The notes beneath the pieces were generated by a model that saw only the letters and a program-made list of their open reading frames with translations, was not told the origin of the DNA and did no database searches. From positions 75,580,001 through 75,644,000 of the forward strand of contig CM059432.1 of the NCBI GenBank assembly GCA_030390025.1: 64,000 nucleotides of DNA, read 5' to 3'. The DNA is from Squalus acanthias (Eukaryota). How positions within the stretch are numbered: position 1 is the first letter of the stretch; the number at the start of each line of letters is the position of its first letter. Of this stretch, positions 14,373 to 59,181 are shown one piece after another. A program made the translations under genes and the position numbers.

Positions 14373-16059
14373 ATGAAACCCCAGATCCCCGTTGTTCACC
14401 ACATCCCCATCATACCAGCCCTCTGTCATGGAACATCACAGTGTCTTCCTGGGCACAAAGTTGAATTAATCAACTTTACAATATGAACTAACCACCTTTG
14501 TGCAATCCCTTAATGCCTGTCGTTCGTGTGCCATTTCCTACTCTGGTGCTCCTACACAGTGCTCCCCCAGTGGCTGCAGCATGGCTAGTGGAAGGCTGCT
14601 GAGATTCCATTTGAGACTACAGATGGACTTGCAGGACAACCTCGACCAGCTCTGGACCTAGAAGACCCGGCTGTAGACTGCACCACCTCAGCATGGGCGG
14701 CAGCAGTCTGGGCTGGCTGGCTGAGAGGCAGTGGCAAGGGCAATGGCGGAGTGCCAGTGGTGAGAGTAGGAATGCTGTCACCTTAGAGAGGACAGCAGGT
14801 TCTTGCTCTACAGATCTACTGCCGCTCCACCGAGGCACGCCTCAGCATTCCTAGCAATCTGTTGGAGGACAGATTGCTAGACTGCTGTGACACCCTGCCT
14901 GCAAGACCCTTTTGACACTCGTAAGCCCAACCACAATGGCAGCAGTCTGAGTTTGGGTTGCAGCAAGCTGAGCCTGCAAGAGAGCAGTCTGCGCTTCCAA
15001 TGCAGCACTGAGACATTGGGCTGTTTCCATCTGTGCTGAAATGAAAGCCGTGACATCGCCCATCACACGCAGCATCATGGCTGGGTTAATGGAGGGAATA
15101 AAGACAGTAGAGAGAAAGGATCTTGGCTCAGAAATACAAAATGTAGAATCAGTTTGGGTGGAGCTAAGAAACAACAAGGGGCAGAAAACACTAGTGGGAG
15201 TAGTCTAAAGGCCCCCTAACAGTGGTTGTAGTGTCGGGCAGAGTACAATTCAGAAATTAGAGATGCATGTAACAAGGGTAATATGGTAATCATGGGGATT
15301 AACTTTCATATAGACTGGGCAAACCAAATTTGCATAAATAGTGCAGCGGAAGAATTCATGGAATGCATTCAAGATAGTTTTCTCGATCAGTATGTCAAGG
15401 AACCTATGAGGGAATTGGCTATTTTAGATCTAGTACTGTGCAATGAGACAGGGTTAATTAATAACCTTGTAGTAAAGGAGCCTCTGGGGAGCAGTGATCA
15501 TAATATGATAGAATTTTATGTTGAGTTTGAGAGTGAATTAGTTAAATCCAAAACTAGAGTCCTAAATCTGAACAAAGCAAACTACATAGGTATGAGAGGC
15601 AAGTTGGGTAAGGTAGGTTGGGAAACTAGATTAAAAAATATGGCAGTAGAAAAGCAATGTTAAACATTTAAAGAAATAATTCATAATTCGCAACAAATAT
15701 ACATTCCCTTAAGGAATAAAAACACCATGGGAAAAATGGTCCGACCGTGGCTAACAAGCGAAATTAAACATAGCATTAGATTAAAGGAAGAGGCTTATAA
15801 TTTTGCCAAAAACAGTAGTAAGCCTGAGGATTGGGAGGATTTTAGAATTCAGCAAAGGAGGAACAAGAAATTGATAAAGAAAGGGAAAATAGAATATGAG
15901 AGTAAACTAGCGAGAGACATAAAAACAGACTGTAAAAGCTTCTGTAGATATGTAAAAAGGAAAATAATAGTGCAAGTAAACATGGGTCCCTTACAGGCTG
16001 AGACAGGAGAAATTATAATGGGGAATAAGGAAATGGCAGAGAAATTAAACAAATACTTT

Positions 16060-17953
16060 GGCTGGAATTTTGCCAGTGCTCAGAGGGCGGGTTTGGAAGT
16101 GGGTTCGCTGTCAAAATAGCAAAGATTGACAGCGGGTAGGAAACCCGTTGTCAACCCACCTCTATGCGAGTCTCCCAGGTGTCAGGTCTGTCAGTGGAGA
16201 ACTGACCCGACACCAAGTGGCGGGGGAGACAATTGAGCTCATTAAATGGCTTGTTAAGAGCCAATTTAATGGTATTTTGAGGCTTCCTTCCAATTTTACG
16301 TGCTCCCCCACGGGTTGCCCGCTGCTCAGGGAACATGCCAGCTCACCCTGGCATGAGTTGAGTCTGCTCTGATGTATATGATAAGCTGACAGCTGCAGAA
16401 GTGGCGTAAAGGATGCCATGTTGCAGATGGTCAGTTTCAGAGTGTAGAAACTGTTGGTTACTGCATTTGTAATACATATAGAGATTTCTTTAGCTTGCAA
16501 GTATTTACAGCCAACTGTATGTCCAGTGCCACCTCACTGGAACAACCTCTCTCACCATTGTCAGATCGCTTCTGTCATCTCACCTGCAGCTGCCATCTAT
16601 TGCCATCCCTTGAAAAAATCAGACCTTGGTCCTCTGAATCCTTCCACAATCAGCCCCCACACCAACATCGCTAGGCGCACCAACATCATCAACAACATCA
16701 CCAACCTTCTCCGCCATCACCTGATGCTGCACAGGACACAGAGCATCAGCCCCTGACAACATTGCTGCCTGGGAGGCCAGCGATGGCCTCACCATGGCCA
16801 GATTTACTTCACTTGACGCTGTAAGCCCTGGCTGCCACATGATGCGCAAGGTTGACACCATCCCACACCAGCACCGTAAAGCATCCCTTTAATGTCCAAG
16901 CCATTCCATGCGCACTCATCACTATAGCGGGGTGGGGGCGGGGGGCGGAGTTATGTCTCAACATTCACTGGAACTCAGTAAGATACTTCTCAAGGTATGC
17001 ACAGATCTGTCCAATAAGGGGCAGTGTTGAAAATATAGATTTCACTGTATGACAACACATTACCACAAATGTCACATGGACATTGGCTAAACCTCTAAGT
17101 GCCTACCCTTGTGTATTGTTAGTTGGTATGCTTGCAGAGGATGAGGGTGAGTGTGAGGGGTGGCTAGTGAGATGGGGAAGTGATAATGTAGATAGAGAGG
17201 CTTGGGTGGAGGTGCAAGGTAAGTTGGTGTGAGTAAGGATGTACAGGAGAAGGGTATGGAAAGCAGAGTGATGGGGATGTGTTGAGTGGCACAGCAGGGT
17301 GAGTTTGAGTGTGGCTTTGCAGTAACATTTCGTGATCCACTGAGATCATTGAAATAACAACAGAAAACGCTGGAAAAACTCAGCAGGCCAGGCAGCATCC
17401 GTAGAGAGAGAAAGAGAGTTGACGTTTCAGGTCGATGACCTTTCATCAAGATCATTGAAAGGTTGGTGCCACTGCAGCCAGGGACCCCTGACAACATCCC
17501 TGCTTTTGTCCTCCTGTGCAATGTGCAACCAGGCTGCGTTGGTGTCCTGGGGAGATTCTCTTCCACCCTTGGAAGGGAAGAGAATCTCCTTGCGTGTTGT
17601 GACTCCCTCCATAAGCATATGGAGGCAGTCATTGGAGAGCCTGGGTACAACCGTCCACCTTTGTGCAGTGCTTGTCAGTGTTTGGAGCACCTCAATGCTG
17701 TCAAACACTGACAGAACAACTGTCAAACTCAATGTGGCCATGGTCCCTTTAAGGAAACCAGCTGATGACGTGTCATCAAATGACGTCATCAGACTCGCTT
17801 CCTGTTAATTGGCCGGAAAGCCCGCAGGGCGGGCTTAACAAGGCCAATCAAAGGAAAATCCCTTTGACAGAGCGGCTGCATCCGGGAGCAGGACCAGAAC
17901 CCAGAAACCAGCTCTCCCGCCACCATTCCAACACCGCTGAGAAAATCCAGCCC
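16060..17953. mobile_element. Non-autonomous Harbinger deletion derivative (family C)
   Basis: TIRs are ggctggaattttg and gaaaatccagccc, with TSD TTT. Splits CR1 codons KYF/VSVFT. Myb exon 1 remnant on the minus strand. Homologous, inverted, to 57204-58999. Confidence 0.92.
17355..17448 (-). mobile_element. Short Penelope-like retroelement fragment with hammerhead-ribozyme-like core
   Basis: Flanked by the 12-bp direct repeat agatcattgaaa and absent from the sister copy at about 57700. The minus strand reads TGATGA-A-AGGTC-ATC-GACCT-GAAACGTC. Confidence 0.72.
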
Positions 17954-18050
17954 TTTGTGTCTGTCTTCACGGAAGGAGACACAAAAAACCTCCCGGAAAT
18001 AGTGGAGAACCAAGGCTTTAGCGAGAATGAGGAATTGAAAGAAATTAGTA

Positions 18051-18347
18051 CAGGTTGAGCGTCCTGAATCCGGCAACTTCGGGACTGAGGCCGAGCAGGT
18101 TTTCGTGTTTTTCCGGACTTCGGAACGTGTTTCTGATGTCCGAAGTCCGGAAATATCGCAACCTGGGCTCGGGCATGTCTGGACTTCGGACATCAGAAAC
18201 ACGTTCCGAGTCCGGAAATGCCTGGGCCCAGGTTGTGGTTTGACAGGGTGTCCGGATTCCAGAACATTTTACGGATTCCAGACGACTCTGCCACCAATCG
18301 TCCCAGAGTCCGGATTCCGGAACTCCGGATTTTGGACGCTCAACCTG
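18051..18347. mobile_element. Tc1/mariner-superfamily (pogo/Tigger-like) MITE
   Basis: TIRs are caggttgagcgtcc and ggacgctcaacctg, with a TA TSD. Has an internal ~40-bp inverted repeat and is CpG-rich. Confidence 0.9.
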
Positions 18348-19380
18348 TATTAGTAAAAAAATAGTACTGGAGAAATTAACGAGACTGAAAGCCAATAAAT
18401 CTCCTGGACCTGATGGCCTACATCCTAGGGTTTTGAAATAGTTGGCTATAGAGATAGTGGATGCATTGGTTGTCATCTTCCAAAATTCCATAGATTATAG
18501 AACGGTTCCTGTGGATTGGAAGATAGCAAATGTAACTGCACTATTTAAGAAAGGAGGGAGAGAGAAAACGGGGAACTACAGACCAGTTAGCCTGACATCA
18601 GCAGCAGGGAAAATGTTAGAATCTATTATTAAGGACGTGGTAACAGGGCACTTAGAAAATAATAATAGGATTGGGCAGAGTCAACATGGATTTATGAAAG
18701 GGAAATCGTGTTTGACGAATCTGTTAGAGTTTTTTGAGGTTGTAACTAGCAGAATAGATAAGGGGGAAGCAGTGGATGTGGTGTATTTGGATTTTCAGAA
18801 GGCATTCGATAAGATGCCACACAAGAGGTTATTAAACAAAATTAGGGCTCATGGGATTGGGGGTAATATACAAGCATGGATTGAGGATTGGTTAACGGAC
18901 AGAAAACAGAGAGTAGGAATAAATGGGTCATTCTTGGGTTGGCAGGCTGTAACTAGTGGGGTACCACAATGATCAGTGCTTGGGCCTCAGCTATTCACAA
19001 TCTATATCAATGATTTGGATGAGGAGACCAAATGTAATATATCCAAGTTTGCTGATGATACAAAGCTGGGTGGGAATGTAAGTTGTGAGGAGGATGCAAA
19101 GAGGCTTCAAGGGGATACAGACAAGCTAAGTGAGTGGGCAAGAACATGGCAAATGGAATATAATGTGGAGAAATGTGACGAAAAATAGAAAAGCAGAGTA
19201 TTTTTTAAATGGTGAGAGATTGGGAAATGTTGGTGTTCAGAGGGACCTGGGTGGCCTTGTACACAAATCACTGAAAGTTAACATGCAGGTACAGCAAGCA
19301 ATTAAGAAAGCAAATGGTATGTTGGCCTTTATTACAAGAGGATTTGAGTATAAGAGTAAAGACGTCTTACTGCAATTATA

Positions 19381-20212
19381 TCTGGACGACTTTCAGGCTT
19401 GGGCTGATAAGTGGCAGGTAACATTCGCGCCAGAGAAGTGCCAGGCAATGGCTATCTCCAACAAGCGAGAGTCTAACCACCTCCCCTTGACATTCAATGG
19501 CATTACCATCGCCAAATCTCCACTATCAACATCCTGGGGGTCACCATTAACCAGAAACTTAACTGGACCAGCCACATAAATACTGTGGCAACAAGAGCAG
19601 GTCAGAGGCTAGGTATTCTGCAGCGAGTGTCTCAACTCCTGACTCCCCAAAGCCTTTCCACTATCTACAAGGCACAAGGCACAAGTAAGGAGTGTGATGG
19701 GATACTCTCCACTTGCCTGGATGAGTGCAGCTCCAACAACACTCAAGAAGCTCGACACCATCCAGGACAAAGCAGCCCGCTTGATTGGCACCCCATCCAC
19801 CACCTTAAACATTCACTCCCTCCACCACCGGCGTACCGTGGCTGCAGTGTGTACCATCTACAAGATGCACTGCAGCAACTCGCCAAGGCTTCTTCGGCAG
19901 CACCTCCCAAACCCGTGACCTCTTCCATCTAGAAGGACAAGGGCAGCAGGCGCATGGGAACACCACCACCTCCAAGTTCCCCTCCAAGTCACACACCATC
20001 CTGACTTAGAAGTATATCACCGATCCTTCATCTTCGCTGGGTCAAAATCCTGGAACTCCCTACCTAACAGCACTGTGGGAGTACCATCACCACACGGACT
20101 GCAGCAGTTCAAGAAGGCAGCTCACCTCCATCTTCTCAAGGGCAACTAGGGATGGGCAATAAATGCTGGCCTTGCCAGTGATGCCCAGATCCCATAAACA
20201 AATTTAAAAAAA
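19381..20212 (+). mobile_element. 3' fragment of a distinct CR1/L2-group LINE
   Basis: Motifs WADKWQVTFAPEKCQ, YSPLAWMSAAPTTLKKLDTIQDKAARLI and SWNSLP. The 3' UTR gatgggcaataaatgctggcc is followed by an A-rich tail. A second copy is at 63546-64000. Confidence 0.85.
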
Positions 20213-21448
20213 GAATAGATAAGGGGGAAGCAGTGGATGTGGTGTATTTGGATTTTCAGAAGGCATTCGATAAGGTGCCACACAAGAGGTTATTAAACAA
20301 AATTAGGGCTCATGGGATTGTGGGTAATATACTAGCATGGATTGAGGATTGGTTAACGGACAGAAAACAGAGAATAGGAATAAACGGGTCATTTTCGGAT
20401 TGGCAGGCTGTAACTAGTGGGGTACCGCAAGGATCAGTGCTTGGGCCTCAGCTATTCATAACCTTTATCAATGATTTGGAAGAGGGTACCAAATGTAAGA
20501 TATCCAAGTTTGCTGATGATACAAAGCTAGGTGGGAATGTAAGTTGTGAGGAGGATGCAAAGTAGCTTCAAGGGAATATAGACAGGATAAGTGAGTGGGC
20601 AAGAACATGGCAAATGGAATATAATGTGGAGAAATGTGACGTTATCCACTTTGGTGGGAAAAATAGAAAAGCAGAGTATTTTTTAAATGGTGAGAGATTG
20701 GAAAATGTTGGTGTTCAGAGGGACCTGGGTGTCCTTGTACACGAATCACTGAAAGTTAACATGCAGGTACAGCAAGCAACTAGGAAAGCAAATGGTATGT
20801 TGGCCTTTATTACAAGAGGAATTGAGTATAGGAGTAAAGACGTCTTATTGCAATTTTATAGCGCCTTGGTGAGACCACACTTGGAGTATTGTGTACAGTT
20901 TTGGTCTCCTTACCTAAGGAAGGATATACTTGCCATAGAGGGAGTGCAACGAAGGTTCACCAGACTGATTCCTGGGATGGGGGGATTGTCCTATGAGGAG
21001 AGATTGAGTAGATTAGGCCTATATTCTCTAGAGTTTAGAAGAATGAGAGGTGATCTCATTGAAACATACAACATTCTTACAGGGCTTGACAGGGTAGATG
21101 CAGGGAGGATGTTTCCCCTGGCTGGGGAGTCTAGAACCAGGGGTCACAGTCTCAGAATAAGGGGTTGGCCATTTAGGACTGAGATGAGGAGAAATTTCTT
21201 CACTCAGAGGGTGGTGAATCTTTGGAATTCTATACCCCAGTCGGCTGTGGAGGCTCAGTCGTTGAGTATATTCAAGACAGACATCGATAGATTTTTGGAT
21301 GTTAAGGGAATCAAGGGATAATGGGATAGTTCAGGAAAGTGGAGTTGAGGTTGAAGATCAGCCATGATCTTATTGAATGGTGGAGCAGTCTTGAGGGGCC
21401 GAATGGCCTACTCCTGCTCCTATTTCTTATGTTCTTATGTTCTTATGT
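20213..21448 (+). mobile_element. 5'-truncated CR1 LINE
   Basis: ORFs 20233-20565 and 20614-21321, with a (TTCTTATG)n tail. Confidence 0.93.
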
Positions 21449-24400
21449 TATGGGTTGACAAAGTCTCTCATGGAGTTGTCCATCATTTGCAGCCTGGAAA
21501 TCCTGGACTCAAAGCTCTGCGCAAAGCCCCGTCCAACGTTGGAGCTGCTGCACAGGACGGGAGGATAAAGAGTGGGAGAGCTATAGTGATAGGGAATTCT
21601 ATTGTAAGGGGAATAGATAGGCGTTTCTGCGGCCACAAACGAGACTCCAGGATGGTATGTTGCCTCCCTGGTGCAAGGGTCAAGGATGTCTCGGAGCGGC
21701 TGCAGGCCATTCTGGAGGGGGAGGACGAACAGCCAGTTGTCGTGGTGCATATAGGTACCAACGATATAGGTAAAAAACGGGATGAGGTCCTAAAAGCTGA
21801 ATATAGGGAGTTAGGAGGTAAATTAAAAAATAGGACCTCAAAGGTAGTAATCTCAGGATTGCTACCAGTGCCACATGCTAGTCAGAGTAGAAATAGAAGG
21901 ATATTTCAGATGAATACGTGGCTAGAGGAATGGTGCAAGGGGGAGGGATTCAAATTCCTGGGACATTGGAACCGGTTCTGGGGGAGGTGGGACCAGTACA
22001 AACTGAACGGTTTGCACCTGGGCAGGACCGGGACCGATGTCCTAGGGGGAGTGTTTGCTAGTGCTGTTGGGGAGGGTTTAAACTAAAATGGCAGGGGGTT
22101 GGGAAACTGTGCAGGGAGACAGAGGAAAGGGAAGCAAGGATAGAAGCAAAAGACAGGAATGAGAAAAGCAAAAGTGGCAGTCAGAGAAATCAAGGGTGTA
22201 AATCAAACATGGCCACAGTAAATAATAATTCTAAAAGGTCTAAGAGTGTTAAAAAAACAAGCCTGAAGGCTTTGTGTCTTAATGCGAGGAGCATTCGTAA
22301 TAAGGTGGATGAATTAGCTGCGCAAATAGATGTAAACGGATATGATATAATTGGGATTACGGAGACATGGCTCCAGGGTGACCAAGGCTGGGAATTCAAC
22401 ATCCAGGGGTATTCAATATTCAGGAAAGACAGGCAAAAAGGAAAAGGAGGTGGGGTAGCATTGCTGGTTAAAGTGGAGATTAACACAATAGTAAGGAAGG
22501 ATATTAGCTGTGATGATGTGGAATCTGTATGGGTAGAGCTGAGAAATACCAAGGGGCAGAAAACGTTAGTGGGAGTTGCATACAGACCCCCAAACAGTAA
22601 TGCTGAGGTTGGGGATGGCATTAAATGGGAAATTAGAGATGCGTGCAATAAGGGCACAGCAGTTATCATGGGTGACTTTAATCTACATATAGATTGGGCT
22701 AACCAAATTAATAACAATACTGTGGAGGAGGAATTCCTGGAGTGTATATGGGATGGTTTCCTGGACCAATATGTCAAGGAACCAACTAGAGATCAGGCCA
22801 TCTTAGACTGGGTATTATGTAATGAGAAAGGTTTAATTAGCAATCTTGTTGTGCGAGGCCCCTTGGGGAGGAGCGATCACAATATGATAGAGTTCTTCAT
22901 TAAGATGGAGAGTGAAGTATTTGACTCAGAGACTTGAGTCCTGAATTTAAATGAAGGAAACTATGATGGTATGAGGCGTGAGTTGGCTAGGATGGATTGG
23001 GGAACGTTACTTAAGGGTTGACGGTGGATAGGCAATGGCAAACATTTAAAGATCGCATGGATGAACTACAGAATTTGTTCATCCCTGTTTGGCATAAAAA
23101 TAAAACAAAAAAGGTGACTCAACCGTGGCTAACAAGGGAAATTAGGGATAGCATAAGATCCAAGGAGAGGACATATAAATTGGCCAGAAAAAGTAGCAAA
23201 CCTGAGGATTGGGAGCAGTTTAGGATTCAGCAAAGGAGGACAAAGGGATTAATTAAGAGGGGGGAAATAGAGTATGAGAGTAAGCTTGCAGGGAACATAA
23301 AAACTGACTGTAAAAGCTTCTATAGATATGTGAAGAGAAAAAGATTGGTGAAGTCAAGGGTAGGTCCCTTGCAGTCAGAATCAGGGGAATTTATAATGGG
23401 GAACAAAGAAATGGCAGACTAATTCAATACATACTTTGGTTCTGTCTTCACAAAGGAGGACACAAATAACCTCCCAGAGATGTTGGGGAACATAGGGTCT
23501 AATGAGAGGGAGGAACTGAATGAAATCAGTATTTGTAGGGTAATGGTGTTAGGGAAATTGACGGGATTGAAGGCCGATAAATCCCCAGGGCCTGATAATC
23601 TACATCCCAGGGTACTTAAGGAAGTGGCCCTCGAAATAGTAGATGCATTGCTGGTCATCTTCCAAAATTCTATAGACTCTGGAACAGTTCCCATGGATTG
23701 GAGGGTAGCTAATGTAACCCCACTATTTAAAAAAGGTGGTAGAGAGAAAACAGGGAATTATAGACCGGTAAGCCTGACATCGGTCGTGGGGAAAATGCTA
23801 GAGTCCATTATAAAAGATGTAATAGCGGAGCACTTGGAAAACAGTGACAGGATCGGACAAAGTCAACATGGATTTACAAAAGGTAAATCATGCTTGACTA
23901 ATCTACTGGAATTTTTTGAGGATGTAACTGGTAGAATAGATAAGGGAGAACCAGTGGATGTGGTGTATTTGGACTTTCAGAAGGCTTTCGATAAGGTCCC
24001 GCATAAGAGATTAGCGTGCAAAGTTAAAGCACATGGGATTGGGGTAAGGTACTGACTTGGATAGAGAACTGGTTGGCAGACAGGAAGCAAAGAGTTGGAA
24101 TAAATGAGTCTTTTTCCGAGTGGCAGGCAGTGACTAGTGGGGTACCACAGGGATCAGTGTTAGGACCCCAGTTATTCACAATATATATAAATGATCTAGA
24201 CGAGGGAACTAGATGTAATATCTCCAAGTTTGCAGACGACACAAAGCTGGGTGGGCGTGTGTGCTGTGAGGAGGATGCAGAGAAACTCCAGTATGATTTG
24301 GACAGGTTGGGTGAGTGGGCAGATGCATGGCAGATGCAGTATAATGTGGATAAATGCGAGGTTATCCACTTTGGTGGCAAAAACAGGAAGACAGATTATT

Positions 24401-25168
24401 ATCTGAACGGCAATAGATTGGGAAAAGGGGAAGTGCAACGAGACCTGGGTGTCCTTGTCCACCAGTCGCTGAAGGTAAGCATGCAGGTGCAGCAGGCGGT
24501 TAAGAAGGCAAATGGTATGTTGGCCTTCATAGCAAGAGGATTCGAGTACAGGAGCAAGGTTGTCTTGCTGCAGTTGTACAGGGCCTTGGTGAGACCACAC
24601 CTTGAGTATTGTGTGCCGTTTTGGTCACCTTATCTGAGGAAGGATGTTCTTGCCATGGAGGGAGTGCAGCGAAGATTCACCAGACTGATACCTGGGATGG
24701 CAGGAATGACATATGAGGAGAGATTGGGTCGATTAGTCTTATATTCACTGGAGTTTAGAAGAATGAGAGGGGATCTCATTGAAACTTATAAAATTCTAAC
24801 AGGACTAGACAGACTAGATGCAGGAAGGATGTTCCCGATAGCAGGGGAGTCCAGAACCAGGGGTCACAGTCTAAGGATAAGGGGTAAGTCATTTAGGACT
24901 GAGATGAGGAGGAATTTCTTCACCCAGAGAGTGGTGAACCTGTGGAATTCTCTACCACAGAAGGCAGTTGAGGCCAATTCATTAAATATATTCAAGAAGG
25001 AGTTAGATATATTTCTTAATGCTAAAGGGATCAAAGGATATGGAGAGAAACCAGGGACAGGGTACTGAATTTGGATGATCAGCCATGATCTCATTAAATG
25101 GCGGAGCAGGCTCGAGGGGCCGAATGGCCTACTCCTGCTCCTATTTTTTATGTTTCTATGTTTCTATG
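21449..25168 (+). mobile_element. Near full-length CR1 LINE (SGNH-esterase ORF1 plus broken EN-RT ORF2)
   Basis: ORF1 has IVIGNSIVRG, CCLPGARV, HIGTNDIG and GLHL. ORF2 pieces at 22209, 23018, 23480 and 24073 have LNARS, ITETW, MGDFN, SDH and FADD. Tail is (TTTCTATG)n. Confidence 0.95.
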
Positions 25169-25379
25169 ACTCCTCCATGCCCCTTGACATTGACAAGAGG
25201 CTCTCTGGCAGGCTTGCCATTACACCTAGCATATCGGTGTGCATGGCCATCACCCTTCTTCTGATGGCCTCCCCCTCGAGGTCCTCATCTGTGTCATGTG
25301 TAGCAGAACTCATGTGCGAACTCGTCCTCCGGGCCATTTGACTGCACCCGATATTGGCCCACCTGTTGAGCGCTAAGCC

Positions 25380-25436
25380 AATCAGCAGCATGTTTAGTGC
25401 TGAGATCAGCAGCATGTTTAGTGCTGAGATCAGCAC
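25380..25436. repeat. 24-bp tandem duplication
   Basis: atcagcagcatgtttagtgctgag repeated about 2.3 times. Confidence 0.8.
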
Positions 25437-25954
25437 TGCAATCTTTATAATGAGCAGGCAGCATGAATTTTGTGTGCTGCCTGGACCACTTTCAACGGGT
25501 GCAGGCAAATAGTGCTGGCATTTGACACCACTCGTTTTCGGGCCTTATTCAATTTCTAGGCCAGGGACTTTACACATGGAATGAACTGTCAGGTAGAGTA
25601 ATGGAGGTGAAAGACTGGAATCAATTAAGACATTGTTGTATGTCAGAATAGGGGGATTGTAGTATATTTGTGGATAGATGAGCTAAGAAAATGCTGATAG
25701 GCCTTCTTTATCTGTATCCATCTTGTGACTAGAAACTCACTGAACTAGTCAATAATGCATTAAGTTGTCATAAAACTGATCCCAGTTGCTAAAGTAGTTG
25801 GAGCACTACAATTGCCTTAGTGTCCTTGACTTAGGAAGGAGGAAAAAAAAACAGCTAGGGTTCTTGCTCCTTTATGCTATCGAGTGTCTTTCTGGAAAGT
25901 GTATATGCAATGTAGAAATAGGGTGAGTACAGGAGCCTTGTCAATACTATCTGA

Positions 25955-28889: not shown

Positions 28890-30380
28890 GCCTTTGTCCA
28901 CGGCAATATTGTGCAGCATGAAACATTCTGCTATAATTGCCATTTTTCACTGGAGCATATTATAGAACCCTTCTAATTTGTCCAGGCATCTGTAATGTTG
29001 CTATAACACTCAAAATATCTCCTTAAACCTTGGTTTGTCTATGTGTGTCATTGTATCTGTGTTTTTCTGTGATATGAGATTGTGAAGGGTTGTCATCAGC
29101 TTTGGTTGCACTACAAAGCTTATACCTCCAAAATGTCAACCCTCCACTCTTCCTTCTCCTTCAAAGACTATGATACTTCAGTTCTTCAGAATTAAAGCAT
29201 CATGGCCTAGCGATTGGGCCATGGAGTGCCCGTTTTTCAGGTGATATGTGGCCTACTAAGGCCCCAAATTGGCAGCCAGGAAGTGCACAACTCCTCCAGC
29301 CGGAAGCACGCTGACCGCCATATATTCGGTAAAGACAAATAAGAGACGTCCTTTACACATGCCTGAAGCATATGCAAATAAATGGCCTTGTGGCTGCATG
29401 AGATCCCCACTCCATCATTGGTTTCCCCTGAGCCAGCCAGCGCCATCACGGGCTGCTAACAGGAAACCAGCCCTACAACCGTCTGCCAATCAATAAGGTA
29501 AGTGACTTACCCGAATGTGGAGCCGGGAGGAGCAGGAGTGCTCCTCCCGAACACACATTAAAGGACCCAATTGCCGTTCCCAACCCCCCCACCCTATCAC
29601 CACTGCCCCCAATCGTGGACCCCTGACCCAACCCCTGGTTTTCACCTGCGGGCGGTTGCACTACGCTGGCTCCATGACAATGAGGTTCGAGGCCCAATAT
29701 CACGGGAGCCTCAGACCTCACCATTCTGCAGCAGGGTACTTACACTTCCCCCACCCCCCACCCACCCCGTCCCGAGCACCCAAATTTCGAAAGCAGCCGA
29801 ATTTCTAGGCCCATGTGTACTTGCCATGCTTTGACAGGCATTGTTTTTTGTTTGGGGTCACATACTATTTGCGCATTTTTTGAGTAATAGCTTTCACTAT
29901 TTATACTATAGATTGTTGGTAAGTGTACCAAAAGCTACACAAATATAATCGATGATGCCCTAAACCTTGGGGAAGTGAGCGATCTGATGTAGCTGCTGGT
30001 GTCACAGCTGAAGGATATTTAGATGGGCGTGTAGTGAAATAGAACTTCAGTTACCTGCTTAGCGAAGCTGTGAACAGGACAACAATTGATTCCTGAGATA
30101 GCCCTATGGGTGCTTTAGAAGGTCTCTGTGGTGTAAAAGTTGAGGGCAATGGTGACCTTCACTGCCACTAGCAGTACGGTGCATATGGTTGACTGTCCCT
30201 GTAGGTTTTGTGGACCAGATGGTACAGAAAGATAACAGCCTCCCTTGTGATCATGAGCTTCATCATCATGCACTGCTTTCTGTGCTCTGTGGCAGTAGAT
30301 CTTCTGCTTAGGATAGTTTGTTTAGTGAGTCATGCAGCACCTATGCCCTCTTGTACTCTGGCTGCCTCCTCCTTCTGTTT
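28890..30380 (-). pseudogene. Ancient Harbinger transposase fossil, interrupted by a MITE
   Basis: Minus-strand remnants LLVAVKVTIALNFY (~30135-30175), FPKV.GIID (~29945-29975) and CFMLHNIA (~28905-28930). Confidence 0.7.
29204..29811. mobile_element. Non-autonomous Harbinger-type element (family D)
   Basis: TIRs are ggcctagcgatt and aatttctaggcc, with TSD CAT. Confidence 0.85.
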
Positions 30381-30762
30381 CTTCTCAGTGAATAAATACC
30401 TGACATGACCATTGCATCAATGCTGTGGGACTAATAACTCCACTGCAATATTCATTTCTGTCAGCAAGCAGAAGGTGACATCGGGATGCCAGAAAAGGAG
30501 TTAACTTTTTCAAGATGTTTGTCAAAGAAAAAACTTGTGTTTAGCTGCTGAGCTTAAATTAGAAGAAGGCCATTCTCACCCAAAATGAAATTGAGGCAGA
30601 AGATTAAATCCTGCAGCTCTTCCCATACACAGCCTGCAGGATGAGTGGAAACACCTCCATAAATCTGGTAAGTGCTTCATCATTTTTGAATGCCTATTAA
30701 TGGAACTGTAGAACAGGAGTGTAGTGTAGAAAGGTAGTGAGTGTAGTCCATACAAACTGATA

Positions 30763-31444: not shown

Positions 31445-31949
31445 ATGCTATTTAGAATTAACTGTCACTTGTTTCTCAATGTATAAATGTGAGGATGCAA
31501 AGAAGTAAATGTGAACAATAACTTCATCATTTTTGTCTGTTCACAGATGCACCTGGATCTTCCAGCTTGGGCATAAGATACAAATGCCTATTACTAGCAC
31601 CATCTGCACCACCGAGACAGTCTGTGCCAAAAACTGAAATTGGAATCACCAGAATAGGCTAACTTCACCACCGACACTGGTTAAATCTTCTGCACATGAT
31701 TGGCTCAGTGAAATTAGCATTACCTATTGAGGAAGGTGAATTGGAAAAAACCCTTGCAGACAGTAGGAACAAAAGAAAGATAGTGTAAATAAAGAAGTTA
31801 AGCATACCTTTAAGGCAAGAGTATTATTGCATCAATAGGATATTCATTCTCCAGTGCAGGATTCCATTCCATTGGCGAATTTTGAAAAAACCTTTCTTGA
31901 TCTGCATGAAGAATAAATGTAAAGGCGATATTACAATCTGAAAGTATTA

Positions 31950-32850: not shown

Positions 32851-32860
32851 GAGACACTAT

Positions 32861-46302: not shown

Positions 46303-46552
46303 CAATTTTCCGTTATGTGTTGCTGCTGGGCAAGGCTCTCACAGGTGCGGGCTGTCGCTCTGCTAAATTCATCATCAATGCACCTGTTTTACGCCCATAA
46401 AACGGGCGCACAATGTTGAATTTTGCCCCTATAATTTCCTGAAAGTGTGAGTGCAAAGTGATAAAGTCATAACAAGACAATAGAAGTTTGGGTTTTATAA
46501 CTAGGGAAATAGACGACAACAGTGTAGAAGTAACGATATGTAGAAATACATA

Positions 46553-47445
46553 GGGGTAAAAATTCACTTGGTTGCGCCACCCGTTAGCGCCTTAAGAGGG
46601 CGCTAATGGGGCGCAAAGCCGCTAACGCCCGGGCGCAGCGATGTTTGCGCCGCTCGAGAACTTAACTTGAGATTGTGCGGCGGCGCTAAAGCTTACCGCT
46701 GCGACCACCTGCGCGCGCAGATCGTGACGTCATTCCATGGTGCAACGCCCTTGGGGCGCCCCGTAGCGGAAATTGAGTGGCGCCCCCTGCCTTACCGCCT
46801 GGCGCTTCCAACGACCAGAAGACTGGAACGCTATCAATCGCTGTGGGGCTGGGGGGGGCGCTATTTAAAGGGGGCCTCTTCCTGTCTTTTATTGTTGGTG
46901 GCATTTTTGAACTACGCATTCTGAGAGAGAGAGGGAGAGACTTCTGGAGAGATTCAACGTTGTGTGAAGGAGTTTTGGGTACTGAGCAGCACTTTGCAGG
47001 TTCATTTTGATTTGCCATTCCTTGTATCGATTTAGCAGAGACCGTGGGAGCTGCACTCTGAGCTCTTTGCCTGGTGCTCCCCATTGTTCTTTCCAGCACA
47101 TTTGATGTGCAAGTCTCTCCAGGCCGAGATTCAAGGCAGCAATGAACAGGATGTGGATGGAAAGCAAGATTAACCATCCCCTTTAAGAACTGGCCCGTGC
47201 CATTGTGTGTGTGTTCCATTGCTGACTGACATTACATGAGCTTCGCCAGCGCTCCGAGTTAGCGCCTCACTGCTCGGCCTTTGCGCCTTAAGAGAGGTGT
47301 GCAGCGCCTGCTTTAGCGCTCCACTCACCTCCCGGGGCGGTAAAAGTGAAGTTTCCCGTCAGTGCCGATAATTAGCGCCAGGCGCTAAAATTTGCGTCCG
47401 GACGATATTTGCGCCCCAAATGGGGCGCGACCTAATTTCTACCCC
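46553..47445. mobile_element. Non-autonomous Harbinger-type element (family E)
   Basis: TIRs are ggggtaaaaatt and aatttctacccc, with TSD ATA. CpG-rich. Confidence 0.9.
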
Positions 47446-47598
47446 ATAGAATTTAACAATATGGAAACAGGTCATTCTTTCCAACCAATCCATGTCGGCA
47501 TTTTCCCTCCACCTAAGCAAATAGTCCTAATCACATTCCCAAATCAGTTTAACCTCTTTTCCTTCATCCACCAATCTTATCTTAAGGATGACATACCT

Positions 47599-48108
47599 GG
47601 GCTGAATTTTAATGGGGAAGGCGGGTTGGGAGCGGGGGGCTCCGAAGCAGTTGGGAAACCTGAGAGAACGGGGAGGCCTCTTGGGGGGAATCAGAGGCCT
47701 GTGGGGGTAATCAGAGGTCTGGGGGGATTGGAGGCCTCATGGTGGGGGAGGGGGGTCTCCAATCGCGGGGGGTGGGTTAGGCAGTGACCCTGGATCCAGG
47801 GTTATGTGTAAAGGCACTTACCTCCTGGATCCAGCAGTCCTCGCCTTGCTTTAGCTGACGGGTTTCATGAGGCCTGCAAAACCCGACCAGCTACAGTTAA
47901 ATTCAAAAGTATGGTTAAAGCAGAGGCTTCCAGCCTCATTATAATATTTAAATAGACGACCCGCCTCCTGGGAGCGGGTTGTCTGCACGCCTCCGTTGAA
48001 ACCGGATGTAGGCGGGTTGGAGGTAGGTTCTGGCCGGGCTTCAGATTTTTAACACTTTAACTTCCCACACGCCCCAACCCACCCGGTTTTTTAGGTTAAA
48101 ATTCCCCC
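47599..48108. mobile_element. Family B element (short variant)
   Basis: TIRs are gggctgaattttaa and ttaaaattccccc. Homologous to 52078-53210. Confidence 0.85.
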
Positions 48109-48799
48109 TACTATAATTAGACTGAGTATTCCAGGGAGGAGCGAATTCAGCCACTGTTTGTGCCCCTGATCATTGACCAGTGAATCTTGGATTTGTGCAT
48201 TTGTGTAGATATCAGGGAGGACAGGATTCAGCACGCTGTGATGGCTCCCAGGTTTGGATAATTTGTCTAGCTTCACACATGAAGAATAATTATTTGGGCA
48301 AGTTGCCTGAGGACATCTGGAACAATATAGGTTAACACCTTCAGCACAAAGTAGCTTTTATTGGACATTCTGATCAGAAGAGGGTTAACTGCCCAAGAAG
48401 AGAATCTTGAACCTAAGCATGAACAGATTAAAATGTGCTATACTAGTCTGAAGATCTATGACAGCTGTAAAAAGAGACGTGTCCCTGAAATATCTGCTTC
48501 TAAGCATGTTTCTCATTTTCTCTCTGCTTGTTAATGATGACAATAACATTTTGCCCAGGTCAGCACTGTGAATAAATTGGGACTGTGGTAGGTATATTCT
48601 TGACACAGTATAAATCTTTGTTTATTGGTTTACATTTGGAACACCTATATTATTGACTTCAATTTCTTACAGGACAGTTGAATAGGGGAGGGGTGAGAAG
48701 CACTCTCAATTCTCGGTGTATTCACTCTGCCTTATACTTTCCGGTGTCTATTTATTATTGATTAAACTATTTTTCCTTCTTTCTTTGTTATGTGTCTAG

Positions 48800-50761: not shown

Positions 50762-52077
50762 TTCTCGCCATCTTTAAATTTCATCAGCTCTCTCGATGTA
50801 CAAGTGCTATAGGATTGTTTTCTTACTGATCCAGACACTAAAGGAGAAAGGATTTATCTGTGACCTTGTTAGGGAGATTTCCCCTCTACACTCCAATTGG
50901 TGTAACAGAGGTTGTTGTGATTCAGCGATTGGGGTAGACTAACTAGCATTGAGACAGATCACCACTAAAAGCATCCAACCACCTAATATTAATTTTTAAA
51001 AACTTTCCCTTACAAATGCTAATAGAATGATTGCACAAATTGAGCTGGCTATCCACACAAAATAAAAAGGAGGAAAATTGATGTAAAATGAATTTCTGCC
51101 CACAGTGGGACAGAACTCAGATATTGGAAAAAAAATTGTAATGGAAGAATGGTAATTTTCATTTACCTGATTTAAGCAATCAGGAGTCAACCCTGTCATG
51201 TTAGCATGGGTTCAGGGACTGAAAGTATAGGATTTTCCCTATGTGTCTGTGTCAGTAAATTCAATGGTAAATCTGCTGGCAAGTATTTTCAGCCTATTTA
51301 GGCACTAATCACAGGCACCTTTCTTTGTCCATCTGGTCCAGGGTCAGTGACCATACACACTGAAACCAATACCTTTGAATGGACATGTTACAAGGGGATC
51401 TCTTTGTTTGGTGTCAGTCCCCTACATTGCCCCACTCAATGCTAAAGCAATAGGATGGATATAGCATTAAAGGAAGGAATTCTGGGAATGAGATTCTTTT
51501 TTATGAAAATACCTTGAATTCAATAAGATCTTCAAAACTGGCCAACTGGTTGACATATTATTAACATAATGCTTTCTGCATAATATAAGCGCATAATATA
51601 AGTGCCACCCAAATATGGTAATTCACAGAGTTATAACAGCGCAACCAACTTTTACTGGAGTTTGATACAAGACGAAATCACAGCAGTGAAACATAACACT
51701 GCTACCACTCACCAGGATCAGCCACAAGCCAATTAGCAAGGCTTACTCCCCATCATACTGTATAATGTACCATATGTGCTGTATAGCATGAAATCAAAGT
51801 ATGACAATCTTGTAACTGAAGAAAAATTGCAACAAAAAAATACTGAATTGTGCTCAATGGAAAGATTTTATAAAATATCCTGGCAGCATCACCACCATTT
51901 ATAATGATGTGAGTGGGGAGCCATGGTGAATCTGCTCGTCACAGGTGCAAAGTAAAGACTCCAGAAGAAAGAAGTCGAACTTTGTCGGCAATTTTAAATA
52001 CTATTGACATACTGCAGCTGTAAATCATCACAGGAATGTAAAAACATGAAACTGAAAATGCTACAAGCTGCTTCTTA

Positions 52078-53210
52078 GGGCTCAATTTTAATGGGGAAGG
52101 CGGTTTGGGAACTGGGGGCTCCGAAGTGGTCAGGAAACCTGGCAGAATGAGTTTCCCTGCAGGCCCTGCCGAATATAACGGTTTGCATCGGAAACCTCTG
52201 TTTCCCACCCGCAGTCAGCCAGATTTAATGGCTGGCTGGCTCTGGGCCAGTAGGCCTGTGGCACTAGGCCACAGAGAGGAGGGAGGGAGGGATCGCGTGG
52301 GGGCCCGAGGAGCATGGGGAGGGCCGGAGGAGCGGGGTGGGGGGGATGCGGTTCGGGTGAAGATTGGGTGCCGGGACCAGCACGGGAGGGGGCTCAGAGA
52401 ACGATTGGGGGTCGGGACCAGCGGGGTAGGGGGTGGGGGTCGGTGACGATCAGGGGCCGAAGGAGCAGGGGGAGGGCCGGAGGTGCGGGGTCAGGGGGGG
52501 GGGGGTGGGGGCGGTTCGGGTGAAGATTGGGTGCCGGGGCCAGCATGGGAGGGGGCTCAGAGAACGATCGGGGGCTGGGACCAGCGGGGTAGGGGGTGGG
52601 GGTCGGTGACGATCAGGGGCCGAAGGAGCAGGGGGAGGGCCGGAGGATCGGGGGGGTTGTCGGCGGAGCAGGGGTGGGGTCAGCAATGATCAGGGGCCGG
52701 AGGAGCAGATCAGCGGATGGAATAGCGGGGTTGGGGTGGTTAGGAAATGATTGACAGCCGGAGGAGCAGATCAGAGGTCAGAGGAGCATTGGGGGGAGGC
52801 CTCATAGGGGGGGATCGGAGGCCTGGGGGGGAAATCGGAGGCCACGTGGGGGGGTCTCCAATTGCAGGGGCTGGGTAAGGCAGTGATCCTGGATCCAGGC
52901 GTTAGGTGTAAAGGCATTTACCTCCTCGATCCAGCAGTCCTCTCCTTACTTTAGCTGGCGGGTTTCACAAGGCCTGCAAAACCCAACCAGCTGAAGTTAA
53001 ATTCAAAATGGAGGTTAAACCCGAGGCTTCCAGCCTCATTATAATATTTAAATAGATGATCTGACTCATGGGAGCCGATTGGCTGCCCGCATCCCGTCCC
53101 ACCTCTATTAAAACCAGAAGTAGGCGGGTTCTGGTTGGGCTTCAGATTTTTAACACTTTAACTTCCCACACGACCCCAACTCATCCATTTTTTTAGGTTA
53201 AAATTCCCCA
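52078..53210. mobile_element. Family B element (long variant, internal tandem duplication)
   Basis: TIRs are gggctcaattttaa and ttaaaattcccc. About 52345-52483 is repeated at about 52508-52645. Confidence 0.87.
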
Positions 53211-53372
53211 ACTTTGTCCTACCAGCCAGACATTCCAGAGTAGGTAAAATGCTGTTACGATTAAATAATGTCAAATCTGGCTTGATATGTTAAATTATTT
53301 ACTGCCAGCCTTCCTTAAAGTACAAAGTAATACAAAGCGCACTCTGTCTAATTTATTCTGTTCAGAAAGGCT

Positions 53373-54207
53373 GGGGGGAATTTTCCCAGCCCTGGGGAGG
53401 CGGGACTGCTGGGAAAATGGCAGAAACTGGGAGCGGGTACCGAACCTGCTCCCAACCCGCCTCTGTGCCAACATTCCGGGAGGCGGGTCCTCGACTCGCA
53501 CAGGGACCCGTCTCCTTGAGGCGGGAAGGGGATTAGAGCCAATTAACTGCCTGTTAACAGGTAGTTAACAGGCAGTTTTGAGGCTTATCCCCATTTTACC
53601 CCTGCAAGTGCGGACTTCCCGACAGCTGCGAACCTCGCCAAGGTCAGCGAGGCGAGCAGTGGGTCTGCGGGGGTGAGAGGGATCGAAAAGTCCACTGTAG
53701 AGGTGAGTGATGGGTGCAAGTGTGGAGAGGTAAGTATGAGAAGTGAGTGTAAAGTGTTAGAAAAAGTTTACTTACCTTTGCTTCTTCCTGCAAGCTTCAA
53801 CCCTTGGAGATCCGGAGGTGCCTCATCTCAACGGCAGAGGTGACAGAATGGCTGCTGTATTCTCAGATGCAACACCCATCTGATTTCTGCTGAGGCAAGA
53901 GGTTTTGGTGAGCCTTCAGTGCAAGGGCTCACCTTAGAACAGAGATTGTCAGTGTTTGACAGCTTCTCAAAGCTGTCAAATGCTGACAATTCATCTGTCA
54001 AAATTTTTTCGACAGATGAAACGTCATACGCTGAGGTCCTCTGTCACCAGCTTTCCCTTAATTGGCCGGCTAAGCCAGGCAGGGTGGGCTTAACAAGGTC
54101 AATCAAGGGAAAATAGCTTGGGTTGGCCAGACGTCGTTGGGGGCGGGACTGAAACCCGAAAACGAGCAGTCCTGCCCCCAACGCGCCCCCATTGACAAAA
54201 TCCAGCC
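53373..54207. mobile_element. Family A element
   Basis: Ends are ggggggaatttt and aaaatccagcc. Collinear with the reverse complement of 36710-37555. Confidence 0.88.
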
Positions 54208-56083
54208 AAGAGTGCAAATACTGCTAACATTTGGAGTTAGAAAATATTGAGGTACAGATAAGGCATTAAGCTAAACCTAAAGTACATCAGCTCATTCAAT
54301 TATTCCATTACTGTCTTTACCTCCACATGAGAGACAGCATGCCTGGTAAAGGTGAGAGTGCTTCTGAATTATTGAAAAGGAAAAGTTTGACAGTTGATGT
54401 GGAGCAGCATTGTGTATTTGTGACATTGTGAAAATTCCTGTCAGCAGTGTTGGCATTTTTGTGCTTGTCTATGTGTCAGTTTTAATTAGTGTAACATCAG
54501 TAAAATAATGTAAAGTAAAAAGGACATGTAAATTAGTGAAGTGAAATTGAGTTTTAGGTTTATAGAGTGGGATTAAAATGACGCAGTGTTTTTGTCAAAG
54601 GCGATTATAGGTGTTGGGATTTGGGAAGCTGCCGATAACCAGCAAGATTCCAGCACTGAAAGATCTTGGAATCTGACCTCCCCTTGGGAATCAGGTTAAA
54701 ACTCACAACAAACACACATTTCATTACTTGTTCTTCTTCACAAGGTGTAAGAAAATTTGACCAAGTTCCTTTTGCTAGTCTTAGACATCTTTTAAATTTG
54801 TGGGTGACTTACTGCTAGTTTGTGCTGCTGTGCTTTCTCCTTCAATTGGAAGAGCTGAGGGTAGCATTTTCATATCTGCCTATTATAGCCCTCCATGTTA
54901 ACCAACAACAGCTGTGTAATATTGTGAACGCTGGTGACTTTTTAGTGATTTTATTGATTATGCGCTGTGGTTCTAATGGTCATAATTCACTGGGATAGAG
55001 AACAAATATTTTGTAGCCTCTCCCTTCTATCCTTGTTAATTGCACATGTTAAAATAATAGTGCAAAATGAATCGGTGCCGATTCCTCAGCTTTACTCTGT
55101 TGCTGCAGATTACCCTTGGATTAGAACACATGGTCCTTCAGTTAGGAGTCTAACAATCCAGTGTAGAAATATGTGGCTGCTCTACTGCCTGGCAGCCTAG
55201 TTTTGCTCAACATTTTTTGTTGCTTTGTCTATTTTTGGTTCCTATGAACCTGAATTTCAATGTAAAAACTCTGCTGCTTGTATGAGTATCTTTGTGAGTA
55301 TAGTAGGCATTACCTTCTCCCAAACTGACCTAATATATTTTCCAAATTGGCTCCGGTCAGATCAATTCCGACTTCAGAAACCAGCCCTCATTTCTGCTAC
55401 ATACAGCATGAAATCTGAAACAAAAGTAAAATACTGTTATTTTTCCCATTATATCTCATACAACCATTGCAGAAACAATACAAACTGGAGAACCCAATAC
55501 ATGCCTGACAGATCTCTCAGCAATCCCCACTCCTGAAAATCTCAGCCATCTAGCTAATATGCAAGACTGCCTTTCATTGTTATCTAGCACAGCCAAGAGG
55601 CAGCACTTTCTTCCTGAATGGCAGTTCCCTATTCTGAAAGACTCACCTGCAGACTCCTGGCATTCCTACTGACTGATATGCAATCTGCAATTTTTTTTCA
55701 CAATATAAACTATTTTCCACAGTAAGTGCAGACAATTGTCATCTTTTGGTGCAGAATGCCTTTTTTATTTTCCTTTGTTGTTTGTGAAATGATTACACGT
55801 TCATAGTGATAGGTTAATATTTATAGATCTGTTTCTTTTTAATTTAATGGATGCTTCAGTTGAGAATGGCCAAGGTCAGTGCTACAGTTCAAAACCTATT
55901 TCAACTTCAGATCAATGTGTTTTAGCTAATAGTCTTGAAGATTCTCCAGTTACTTTTTTTAAAGGTAGATGCCCTGTTACTTTGCTATGTTCAAGTAGAT
56001 CAAAATAAAGAGAAAGTATGTTAAACAAAACTCAGGGTGTGAAAATTTATAATGGAATGGGTTGTGTTGCCTTTTGCCTATCA

Positions 56084-56686: not shown

Positions 56687-57203
56687 TTAAAGATTAATAG
56701 CGCAGGTTTGTTCACTGATGTTCATTCAGAAACTGATGTGAAATGAATATTAAAGCTCAGGGACTTTGTACAAACAGCAGAACATTTGTTTGGGAGAACA
56801 ATGTGGGTCTGTTTGTTTCCAAAGCTTATTCTATTGAGAGAATTTCTTCTTCGGGGGTAACTCAAAGAAACCCTTCGAGCGTTGATGACTGAGAACAGGG
56901 CCTTACTTTCCAGTGTGGAAAGCAGAAGTAACCAAAACATTTAGCTTACAATTTAAAGAAATATAAAGTACATCAACTGAAGCTGGTGATGTTTATTGGC
57001 TCTTTTGTCTCTTTCCCCTCATCCCACTTGTCTTCTTACACAATTCATGATCTCTAATAGAATAATAATTCTATTAAATTAATGATTAAATAAAACTGAG
57101 CTCCTGGTCTGGACTGTTTAGAATGTGGTTGCATTCGTTAGTCAAGTCTGTAAGAATTTCTTAATGCTGCTCTGCTTGAGATGAACAGACCAGCAAAGCC
57201 CTG

Positions 57204-58999
57204 GGCCACGATTTTGCTCACCTCGGTGGGTCCGTGGCAGGCGACGTCGGTGGCGGGTCGCGACCCTGCTGCTGGCTCCATCCCGCTCTGTGAAATGACT
57301 TTCCCTTGATGGGGCTTGTTAAGCCCGCCGAACGCATTTCCCAGCCAATTAGAGGAAGCGGGTCTGGTGACGTAATTTGATGACGCGTCATCAGCTGGTT
57401 TCTTTAAAGGGACCATGGCCAACTTTATTTTGACAGTTCTGCTGTCAGTGTTCTACAGCATTGAAGGTGCTGCAAACACTGACAAGCACTGCACAGAGGT
57501 GCACGGCTGCACCCAGGCTCTCCCATGACTCCCTCCATATGCTTATGGAGGGAATCACAGCAGGCAAGGAGGTTCTCTTCCCTTCCCATGGGCAGAAGAC
57601 CTCCCCAGGAGATCAACACAGCCTGGTTGCACATTGCAGAGGAGGGCACAAGCAGGGATGTGGTCAGGAGGACCTGGGTGCAGTGCTGCAAACGTTTCAA
57701 TGATCTCATTAGATCACGAAATGTTAGTACAAAGCCATATTCAATCTCATCCTGCTGTGCCTCTTATCACATCCCCATCACTCTGCCTTCCCTACCCTAC
57801 TCCTGCACATCCTTACTCACACCAACTTACCTTACACCTCCACCCATCCCTCTCTATCTACATTATCACATCCCCATCTCACTAGCCACCCCTCACACTT
57901 ACCCTCATCCTAGTGCAATCATACCAACTAACAACACACAAGGGTAGGCACTTGGGTGTTTTATCCAATGTTCATTTAAAGTTTCTGTTAATGTGCTGTC
58001 AAACATTATAACCTTTATTTTCAACACTTTGCATTCTTGGACAGATTTGTGCGTACCTTTGGAAGTGGCTTAGTGAGTTGCAATGAATGGTGAGACATAA
58101 CGGTACCCCCCGCAACCTCCCCCCCCCCCCCTGCACCCCCTCGCCCCAGCCCCCACAATGATGATGAGTGTGAAAGGAATGGTTTGGGCATTGTAGGGAT
58201 GCTTTATGGTGTTGGTGTGAGGTGGTGCCAACCTGGCGCATCATGGGCCAACCAGGTGTGCAGCATGAAGTGAAGCAAATCTGGCCATGGTGAGGCCATC
58301 CCTGGCCTCCCGGGCTGCAATGTTGTCGGGTGCTGATGCCCTCTGCCCTGTGCAGCATCAGTTGGTTGCGGAGAAGGTTGGTGTTGTTGTTGGTGCTGCT
58401 GGTGTTGGGGCTGATCGTGGTGGGATTCTGAGGACCAAGGTGAGAGAGTATAAAGGGCACCCATACTGATGGAATAGATGGCAGGTGAAGTAGAGATGAC
58501 AGAAGCGATCCGTCAATGGTGAGAGGGGTAATGAAGTTAGATGGATGGAGACTTGTGTAAAGACTTGCAGCATGGTGAATCTGTTGTGTAAATGCAGTGA
58601 GGAAAGCTGAGGGAAGATATCTCTGTAAGGTGGGAGCTTTTACTTTACATTTGAAGCTGTCAACTCAACAGCTAATTCAATGGCCACTGAACTCCCGCCT
58701 CAACTTGACAGACGTGGTCCATGACCAGCGTGGACCCCGTGGGCGAGCTGTCAAATGTAAAAGATAAGTTGAAAATCATTCTTAAGTGGCTCTAAACAAG
58801 CCACTAATTACCTGAATTGGGTCCCCAGCTGTGAACCCGCCGCTGCGTGTCGGGACTGCTCAGCACTGACAGACCCGACATTGGGAAAGGCGCATGGTGG
58901 CAGGTTCACAGCGGGTTCCTGACCCACTGTCAAAAATATCAAATTTCCAACCCGACCCACCACCAATCCCGTCTGCTGACCCCCCGTAAAATTCTGGTC
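57204..58999. mobile_element. Non-autonomous Harbinger deletion derivative (family C)
   Basis: Degenerate TIRs with TSD CTG. Myb exon 1 remnant on + (RRTWVQCCKRFNDL). Poly-Q transposase N-terminus on - (ORF 58204-58464). Confidence 0.9.
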
Positions 59000-59181
59000 C
59001 TGGTGTTTGATCTCTGGTCTGTACTGATTTTGCAGATCTCTGCTGGAGTGGTGCTCAGGGCCATGCAGTTAGTCTGATCGCACATCACTATCTGAGCTTG
59101 TATGTGGAAAATATCATTTAGACAAGCTACCAAAGAGGAACCAGCTTGAGTTAACACCTACATGAAAGGGGAAAAAATGTT

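Follow-up and report, generated by a model that had tools for sequence, protein, structure and literature searches.

The 64,000-nucleotide stretch of the genome of the shark Squalus acanthias analyzed here (contig CM059432.1, positions 75,580,001 to 75,644,000; hereinafter the window, in whose own coordinates all positions are given) contains DNA transposons of the PIF/Harbinger type, and three of the four recurring families of their ends sit between mirror-image flanks, AAASAC...GTSTTT (S being C or G), around an A/T-rich 3-bp duplication. These flanks recall the target of the zebrafish element Harbinger3_DR, AAACACCWGGTCTTT (PMC3016246). We consider it probable that the shared flanks reflect a symmetric reading of ~15 target bases by the transposase together with Myb-like proteins, a property probably inherited from a common ancestor with Harbinger3_DR.

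The elements were delimited with a terminus profile and a fixed register of the terminal inverted repeat (TIR), the termini being assigned while the flanks were visible to the analyst. As the profile alone is unspecific (77 matches vs 26–41 in shuffles), ends were retained by pairing or by their likeness to other ends. We thereby catalogued 16 Harbinger-type elements with both ends and a further 10 single ends (167, 6537, 27052, 32861, 38212, 46429, 51102, 55547, 59182, and 61415) for which no partner was found in the window; doubtful termini left in the main count are the single ends 27052, 51102, and 55547 and the pairs 50592, 52078, and 53373. The elements are bounded by short TIRs starting with G, and the 3-bp duplication is exact in 8 of the 16 pairs (chance 1.6% each, P=5 × 10–11), has one mismatch in 5 and was not recovered in 3. 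Four recurring families (alpha, beta, gamma, and delta) are defined by grouping of the end sequences, and the surrounding DNA is rich in long interspersed elements (LINEs) of the CR1/L2 type. The two-ended elements and one truncated element are listed by interval, strand where assigned, and feature, with both copies of the triplet and, for some, the match of the flanks (of 6) or of the whole site (of 15) to the target:

726..4998, plus strand: alpha element 735-4989, TAT/TAT, autonomous type, inside a CR1 copy, with a transposase and a Myb remnant within
11553..12616: beta element 11562-12607, AGT/AGT, flanks 5 and 2 of 6
12680..25571, plus strand: delta element 12689-25562, ATG/AGG, 11/15 match, split by nested LINEs, transposase remnant at 13521-14198
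16051..17962: alpha element 16060-17953, TTT/TTT, in the open reading frame (ORF) 2 of a CR1, 11/15 match
29195..29820: delta element 29204-29811, CAT/CAT, flanks 4 and 4 of 6
30754..31453: alpha element 30763-31444, ATA/ATG, absent from the same place in the runs X11 and X12 of related organisms
32021..32565: element 32030-32556, AAA/ATA, left flank 6/6, right flank 2/6
32852..33075, plus strand: left end 32861, from a truncated element of the delta family, its left flank 5/6, right end not recoverable
33951..34602: element 33960-34593, TAT/AAT, flanks 2 and 4 of 6
34871..35683: gamma element 34880-35674, ATT/ATT, whose right end anchors the genome-wide flank consensus
36701..37564: alpha element 36710-37555, TAT/TAT, sharing its CR1 base with 735-4989 but in opposite orientation
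46544..47454: gamma element 46553-47445, ATA/ATA, 10/15 match
47590..48118: beta element 47599-48109, CCT/ACT, flanks at background
50592-50761: 170-bp fold-back element with arms of ~52 bp (85%) and a Harbinger-like end, duplication not recovered
52069..53220: beta element 52078-53211, TTA/CTT, duplication not recovered, flanks at background
53364..54217: alpha element 53373-54208, 83% like 36710-37555, duplication not recovered
57195..59008: alpha element 57204-58999, CTG/CTG, 14/15 match to the Harbinger3_DR target

CR1 paralogues that lack an element show the triplet once, between the same flanks, which therefore belong to the target DNA and not to the element; for 16060-17953, such empty paralogous sites with a single TTT lie near 23434 and 41998. 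Contigs of two related organisms likewise cover both ends of 29204-29811. The two ends of 12689-25562 were paired by inference from their TIRs and from the minus-strand ORF pieces 25164-25544 and 14851-15204, which continue one into the other; several nested LINEs, among them the host of 16060-17953, have lengthened this element to 12.9 kb, and its second ORF appears to continue across the insertion.

The earlier note on this sequence had derived the consensus AAAYAC-NWN-GTRTTT from eight sites (57204, 16060, 46553, 34880, 29204, 32030, 32861, and 33960), all of which we found as it had written them. Five of them belong to pairs with exact duplications (57204-58999, 16060-17953, 46553-47445, 34880-35674, and 29204-29811) and two to pairs that are one base off (33960-34593 and 32030-32556); the poorly fitting right flank of 32030-32556 had been omitted. 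The Harbinger3_DR target that the note had given agrees with PMC3016246, and the site at 57204 indeed matches it at 14 of 15 positions. Among 63,985 uninterrupted window positions none reaches at least 13/15 and 26 reach 11 or 12; the chance of at least 14/15 among 16 sites is ~3 × 10–6.

To gauge the flanks as a whole, half-sites were scored against the six positions of AAASAC, and each end's own flank supplied the null. The 42 half-sites average 3.38 of 6 vs 1.80 for the null; the 14 cited ones reach 4.5 and the 28 uncited ones 2.82, which indicates that the selection of sites inflated the effect. This gap is what speaks for a motif conjured from chance by hand-picking eight sites, a view to which we attach next to no credence: the held-out half-sites (n=26, one repeated CR1 site having been dropped) still score 2.81 vs 1.80 (p~2 × 10–5), and 2.73 vs 1.91 against the AAAYAC of the earlier note (p=2.4 × 10–4); without nine doubtful termini the held-out set (n=17) scores 3.24 vs 1.80; the motif slid along the flanks peaks at a 3-nt offset from the terminus; and the contigs described below provide an independent consensus. 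Thus, the possibility, raised by the note itself, that its small set was chance is refuted: hand-picking enlarged the motif effect and did not create it.

By column, A occurs at -4 in 29/40, at -5 in 22/40, and at -6 in 21/40, and C at -1 in 21/40. The flank bias proposed in that note stands, and its Y/R at positions -3/+3 is better written S: -3 has C in 16, G in 8, T in 8, and A in 8 of 40, and +3 is C genome-wide in gamma. Its proposal that specificity lies in the flanks and not in a variable triplet holds in the main, with the qualification that the center is not free of information, being A/T-rich with T as its third base in 23/40. In the window the center is neither CWG (duplicated in 1/16 pairs) nor clearly TWA (TAA/TTA on both sides in 0/16 and on one side in 1/16); the departure from a canonical TWA that had been claimed is accordingly seen in the window only, the genome-wide gamma majority being TAA/TTA, possibly through alignment bias. 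In their flanks the elements agree with the AAACAC and GTCTTT of the Harbinger3_DR family.

The bias depends on the family. Alpha (3.85 of 6, n=13), gamma (3.80, n=5), and delta (4.62, n=8) each exceed the null at p<10–4. The fourth family, beta, comprises 11562-12607, 47599-48109, 52078-53211, and the end 38212, with the triplets AGT, CCT/ACT, TTA/CTT, and ATA and with Harbinger-like TIRs; 11562 and 52078, the sites that had already been singled out as fitting poorly, both belong to it; the motif does not extend to all families.

Evidence from other copies in the genome comes from contigs of four runs (X1, X2, X11, and X12) aligned to 28600-36100 at 80% likeness, of which the loose ends were taken from 24 of ~7,500 rows, covering one terminus (the right end of 34880-35674, behind 35671) in runs X1, X11, and X12. 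Contigs of other copies that leave the window sequence behind 35671 number 238 (X1), 373 (X11), and 381 (X12), and their majority letters read the end of the TIR, TAA or TTA, GTCTTT, T, and then A/T letters that differ between runs. The GTCTTT after the duplication is identical to the zebrafish Harbinger3_DR right half at 6/6 positions, and, as the window's own flank at 35674 differs from it, this consensus is not pulled by the window. At these contig numbers a majority of G or C in a single background column has p of at most 0.002. The TAA/TTA center is unreliable, since contigs starting with ATT would extend the alignment and drop out, which by itself would turn an even A/T mix into T-A-A. 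Two contig joints (31991-32556 and 31438-31964) have short sides, probably come from other repeat copies, and were not used.

Such a consensus could also stem from a few hot spots in abundant repeats, or from units of element plus flank that were amplified together. Four window ends or elements do lie in CR1 copies; two of these share a base, and one is located in the tail repeat of a CR1. We nonetheless judge this source improbable: most window sites are in unrelated sequence, which argues against hot spots, and beyond GTCTTT-T only A/T majority letters that differ between runs follow, where a flank fixed in 15% of the contigs would usually show G/C further out (with a single fixed flank at that share, a G or C column would go to it in 88% of cases). 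The two elements at one base also count in favor of a target rule: 735-4989 and, in opposite orientation, 36710-37555 are inserted into different copies of a single CR1 subfamily and share only ~114 nt at 75%. In both hosts the triplet is preceded by C and followed by G, a combination seen in 0/7 empty copies (family D12; scored by eye, the related copies not being independent). Separately, the element end 167 sits in the 8-base CR1 tail repeat (161-182), and the sister CR1 copy (36118-36140) stops in that same register, following an identical four letters, which may be a leftover end.

In the mechanism that we envisage, a two-fold symmetric strand-transfer complex would cut with a 3-nt stagger, each half touching the cut-adjacent C (-1) and, farther out, the A-run (-4 to -6 or -7), and the three central bases would be read loosely, for bendability. 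A center read so loosely could change from lineage to lineage, being CWG in Harbinger3_DR and mostly A/T here, with the flank reading kept; as the preference is graded and not absolute, many insertions at very high copy number would use partial matches. A different account of a real bias is that it arose convergently and is mostly shape-based, with a bendable A/T center, C/G brackets, and A-runs half a turn away, and without any conserved base-reading module. It gains from the degenerate window logo, in which A at -4 dominates, from the beta family without bias, and from the extended 9-bp preference of plant PIF/Pong (PMC2836001) and the C and G flanks of NuwaII (PMC4482050); we think it unlikely, if worth serious attention, since all six letters of the genome-wide majority coincide with the zebrafish right half, the G at +1 and the C at +3 among them, against an A/T-rich background.

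The coding remnants bear on the question of inheritance:

1500..2507, plus strand: transposase catalytic region, DDE_Tnp_4 (PF13359, 1500-2504; E=2.8 × 10–32), its N-terminal part upstream in another frame
4469..4711, minus strand: Myb/SANT-like remnant of 735-4989 (tblastn E=2.8 × 10–13 vs the Myb ORF at 59382)
59382..59699, plus strand: Myb/SANT-like domain, Myb_DNA-bind_5 (PF13873; E=1.1 × 10–7, above the cut-off), in an element starting near 59182
60614-60962, minus strand: transposase remnant of the element starting near 59182
61406..63052, plus strand: left end 61415 with a transposase remnant (62149-62998) related to 735-4989, cut off by a LINE

DDE_Tnp_4 remnants lie at 13968 and 60371. 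Altogether, four transposase-bearing elements or remnants were mapped, and Myb remnants occur in four elements, including 735-4989, 16060-17953, and 57204-58999. The closest named relatives of the window transposase are shark and ray proteins annotated as 'putative nuclease HARBI1' (~45–67% identity, up to E=10–98); its relatives are spread over sharks and rays, and the best named or attributable match outside the chondrichthyans has 49% identity. The DDE_Tnp_4 and Myb domains and the HARBI1-like relatives point to PIF/Harbinger-type elements in an elasmobranch-type genome. With DDE_Tnp_4, a Myb/SANT gene, TIRs with a 3-bp duplication, and, outside beta, an extended target, the window elements belong to the PIF/Harbinger (PHIS) superfamily.

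Harbinger3_DR is the NuwaI-2_DRer of Han et al., 2015 (PMC4482050, Table S5), who print its catalytic core; as its proxy we used the goldfish protein P0228, which matches 87/92 of the printed core residues by eye. If the shark elements were members of the Harbinger3_DR family that arrived by horizontal transfer, the shared target would be trivial, and the 14/15 match with a CWG center at 57204 and the Pfam pair DDE_Tnp_4 and Myb_DNA-bind_5, present as in NuwaI-2_DRer, would fit such an origin. We find this scarcely credible. The window transposase is only 44% identical to P0228, and in trees of 58 and 26 rows, hand-picked (55 and 23 of some 260 listed proteins) plus three window transposases, the latter fall in a shark-and-ray clade (100/100) that is sister to another ray-finned clade (99/98); the approximately unbiased (AU) test rejects a clade that unites them with the Harbinger3-like rows (p=0.003). 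The broad transposase alignment had no conserved stretch usable for locating related loci, and the flanks compared are accordingly those of the shark elements. The elements thus have neither the close transposase nor the common clade that would mark them as Harbinger3_DR family members. Horizontal transfer appears largely refuted for alpha and delta, the comparison not including gamma's own transposase. As the identity and the separate clade make a recent transfer unlikely, the shared flank would represent old inheritance or convergence, and conservation of the target between cartilaginous and bony fishes is plausible.

Several points weigh against the reading of the flanks as an inherited target. 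The beta family is at background (2.14 vs 1.85, n=7, p=0.30), which may reflect a real loss or change of preference, age, or misplaced ends, and the ungrouped ends are near it (2.33, n=9, p=0.11). In the held-out 26 alone, A at -4 is the only clearly enriched flank column (16/26, p=0.0007), C at -1 standing at 9/26 (p=0.09). The genome-wide evidence concerns one end of one family, in the form of majority letters instead of single flanks, and their mean agreement is only 0.44–0.45; X1 may be the source of the assembly, X11 and X12, from related organisms and one study, share old insertions with X1, and no autonomous partner of gamma is present in the window. The two CR1 hosts are ~90% alike, both ~1.2 kb, similarly truncated, and in the same tail register, so that a duplication followed by replacement of the element is possible. 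On the protein side, the group submitted to the AU test was named after the first tree had been seen, the targets were compared with that of Harbinger3_DR, which is not the sister lineage of the shark transposases, and a sequence search recovered no solved structure of a relative.

A bolder version, which we put forward tentatively as somewhat short of an even bet, holds that vertebrate Harbingers possess a base-specific flank-reading module (A-run, S, A, and C per side) unchanged since before the split of sharks and bony fishes, across transposases less than 45% identical, with the triplet as a separate and fast-changing trait. If so, the triplet groups (TWA, CWG, and C|TNA|G) would be surface variants of one 15–17-bp target, and the shark families, some biased and some not, would serve as natural mutants to determine which of the two proteins, transposase or Myb, picks the target. 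A 17-bp version of the target was reportedly described by Kapitonov and Jurka in 2004. Extended targets are already known as an established PIF/Harbinger trait (PMC2836001); new here are the shark data and the identical flanks around a different core, and our literature search, which covered papers and not Repbase/Dfam entries, found neither a shark Harbinger target logo nor identical flanks around a different center. The natural contrasts at hand are the same flank with a different center (vs Harbinger3_DR), a bias that is present (alpha, gamma, and delta), and one that is apparently absent (beta), and protein swaps between them could separate flank reading from triplet choice. This bears on the building of site-selective transposon vectors and on the practice of sorting PHIS elements by their duplication alone. 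Elasmobranchs are a further addition to the Harbinger target data: PMC9179366 reports no Harbingers in the elephant shark, calls for other cartilaginous fish, and lists elasmobranchs as untested, and in a reef shark Tourist/Harbinger elements are the most abundant DNA transposons (PMC12498223).

Some further observations concern individual loci. At 30763-31444 the X11 and X12 contigs join 30762 to 31449 with 11 letters, where a clean empty site would have 1; this is either an excision footprint in those organisms or a small deletion in the window. The summed depth over the family of this element relative to single-copy flanks, which is not a copy number, is several-fold higher in X1/X2 than in X11/X12. 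A G-rich 41-bp tandem array (26293-27014) is followed by the Harbinger-like end at 27052. Harbinger transposase-like proteins of 383–388 aa (the P0051 cluster) group together at 90% identity across sharks, skates, and rays; they fall in the elasmobranch Harbinger clade and have the look of a domesticated transposase. Scans with a 21-base element end gave one match in a metagenome collection, with no likeness beyond the pattern and hence attributable to chance, and none in a viral collection.

Compared with known systems, the shark elements resemble Harbinger3_DR in the 3-bp duplication inside a 15-bp semi-palindrome, in the GTCTTT right flank (the genome-wide majority of gamma), in the DDE_Tnp_4 and Myb_DNA-bind_5 pair, and in one 14/15 site; they differ from it in their mostly A/T center, a looser fit, a transposase of another clade, and a family, beta, without the bias. 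The NuwaI-type traits, namely the same domain pair and a TIR often starting with GGG, are present and are not exclusive to NuwaI. Like the NuwaII elements of turtles, Xenopus, and amphioxus (C|TNA|G; PMC4482050), they have C and G beside the triplet, in 6/16 pairs, with A at -4 and T at +4; unlike in NuwaII, the center is not TNA (0/16 on both sides), and an A-run flank does not figure in the available part of the NuwaII description (PMC4482050). As for plants, PMC2836001 gives extended preferences of 9 bp there and 15 bp in vertebrates, notes that they are kept in foreign hosts and are therefore encoded by the proteins, and poses as a question which of the Harbinger proteins makes the choice of target; for mPing, the next target is not steered by the element's own duplications (PMC4561436). 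Unlike plant PIF/Pong, with 9 bp around TTA/TAA, the shark sites carry information out to -6 or -7, and TTA/TAA stands on both sides in none of the pairs; like plant PIF and Ping/Pong/mPing (PMC2836001), they combine a two-gene anatomy with a target preference reaching past the 3-bp duplication and carried by the element's own proteins.

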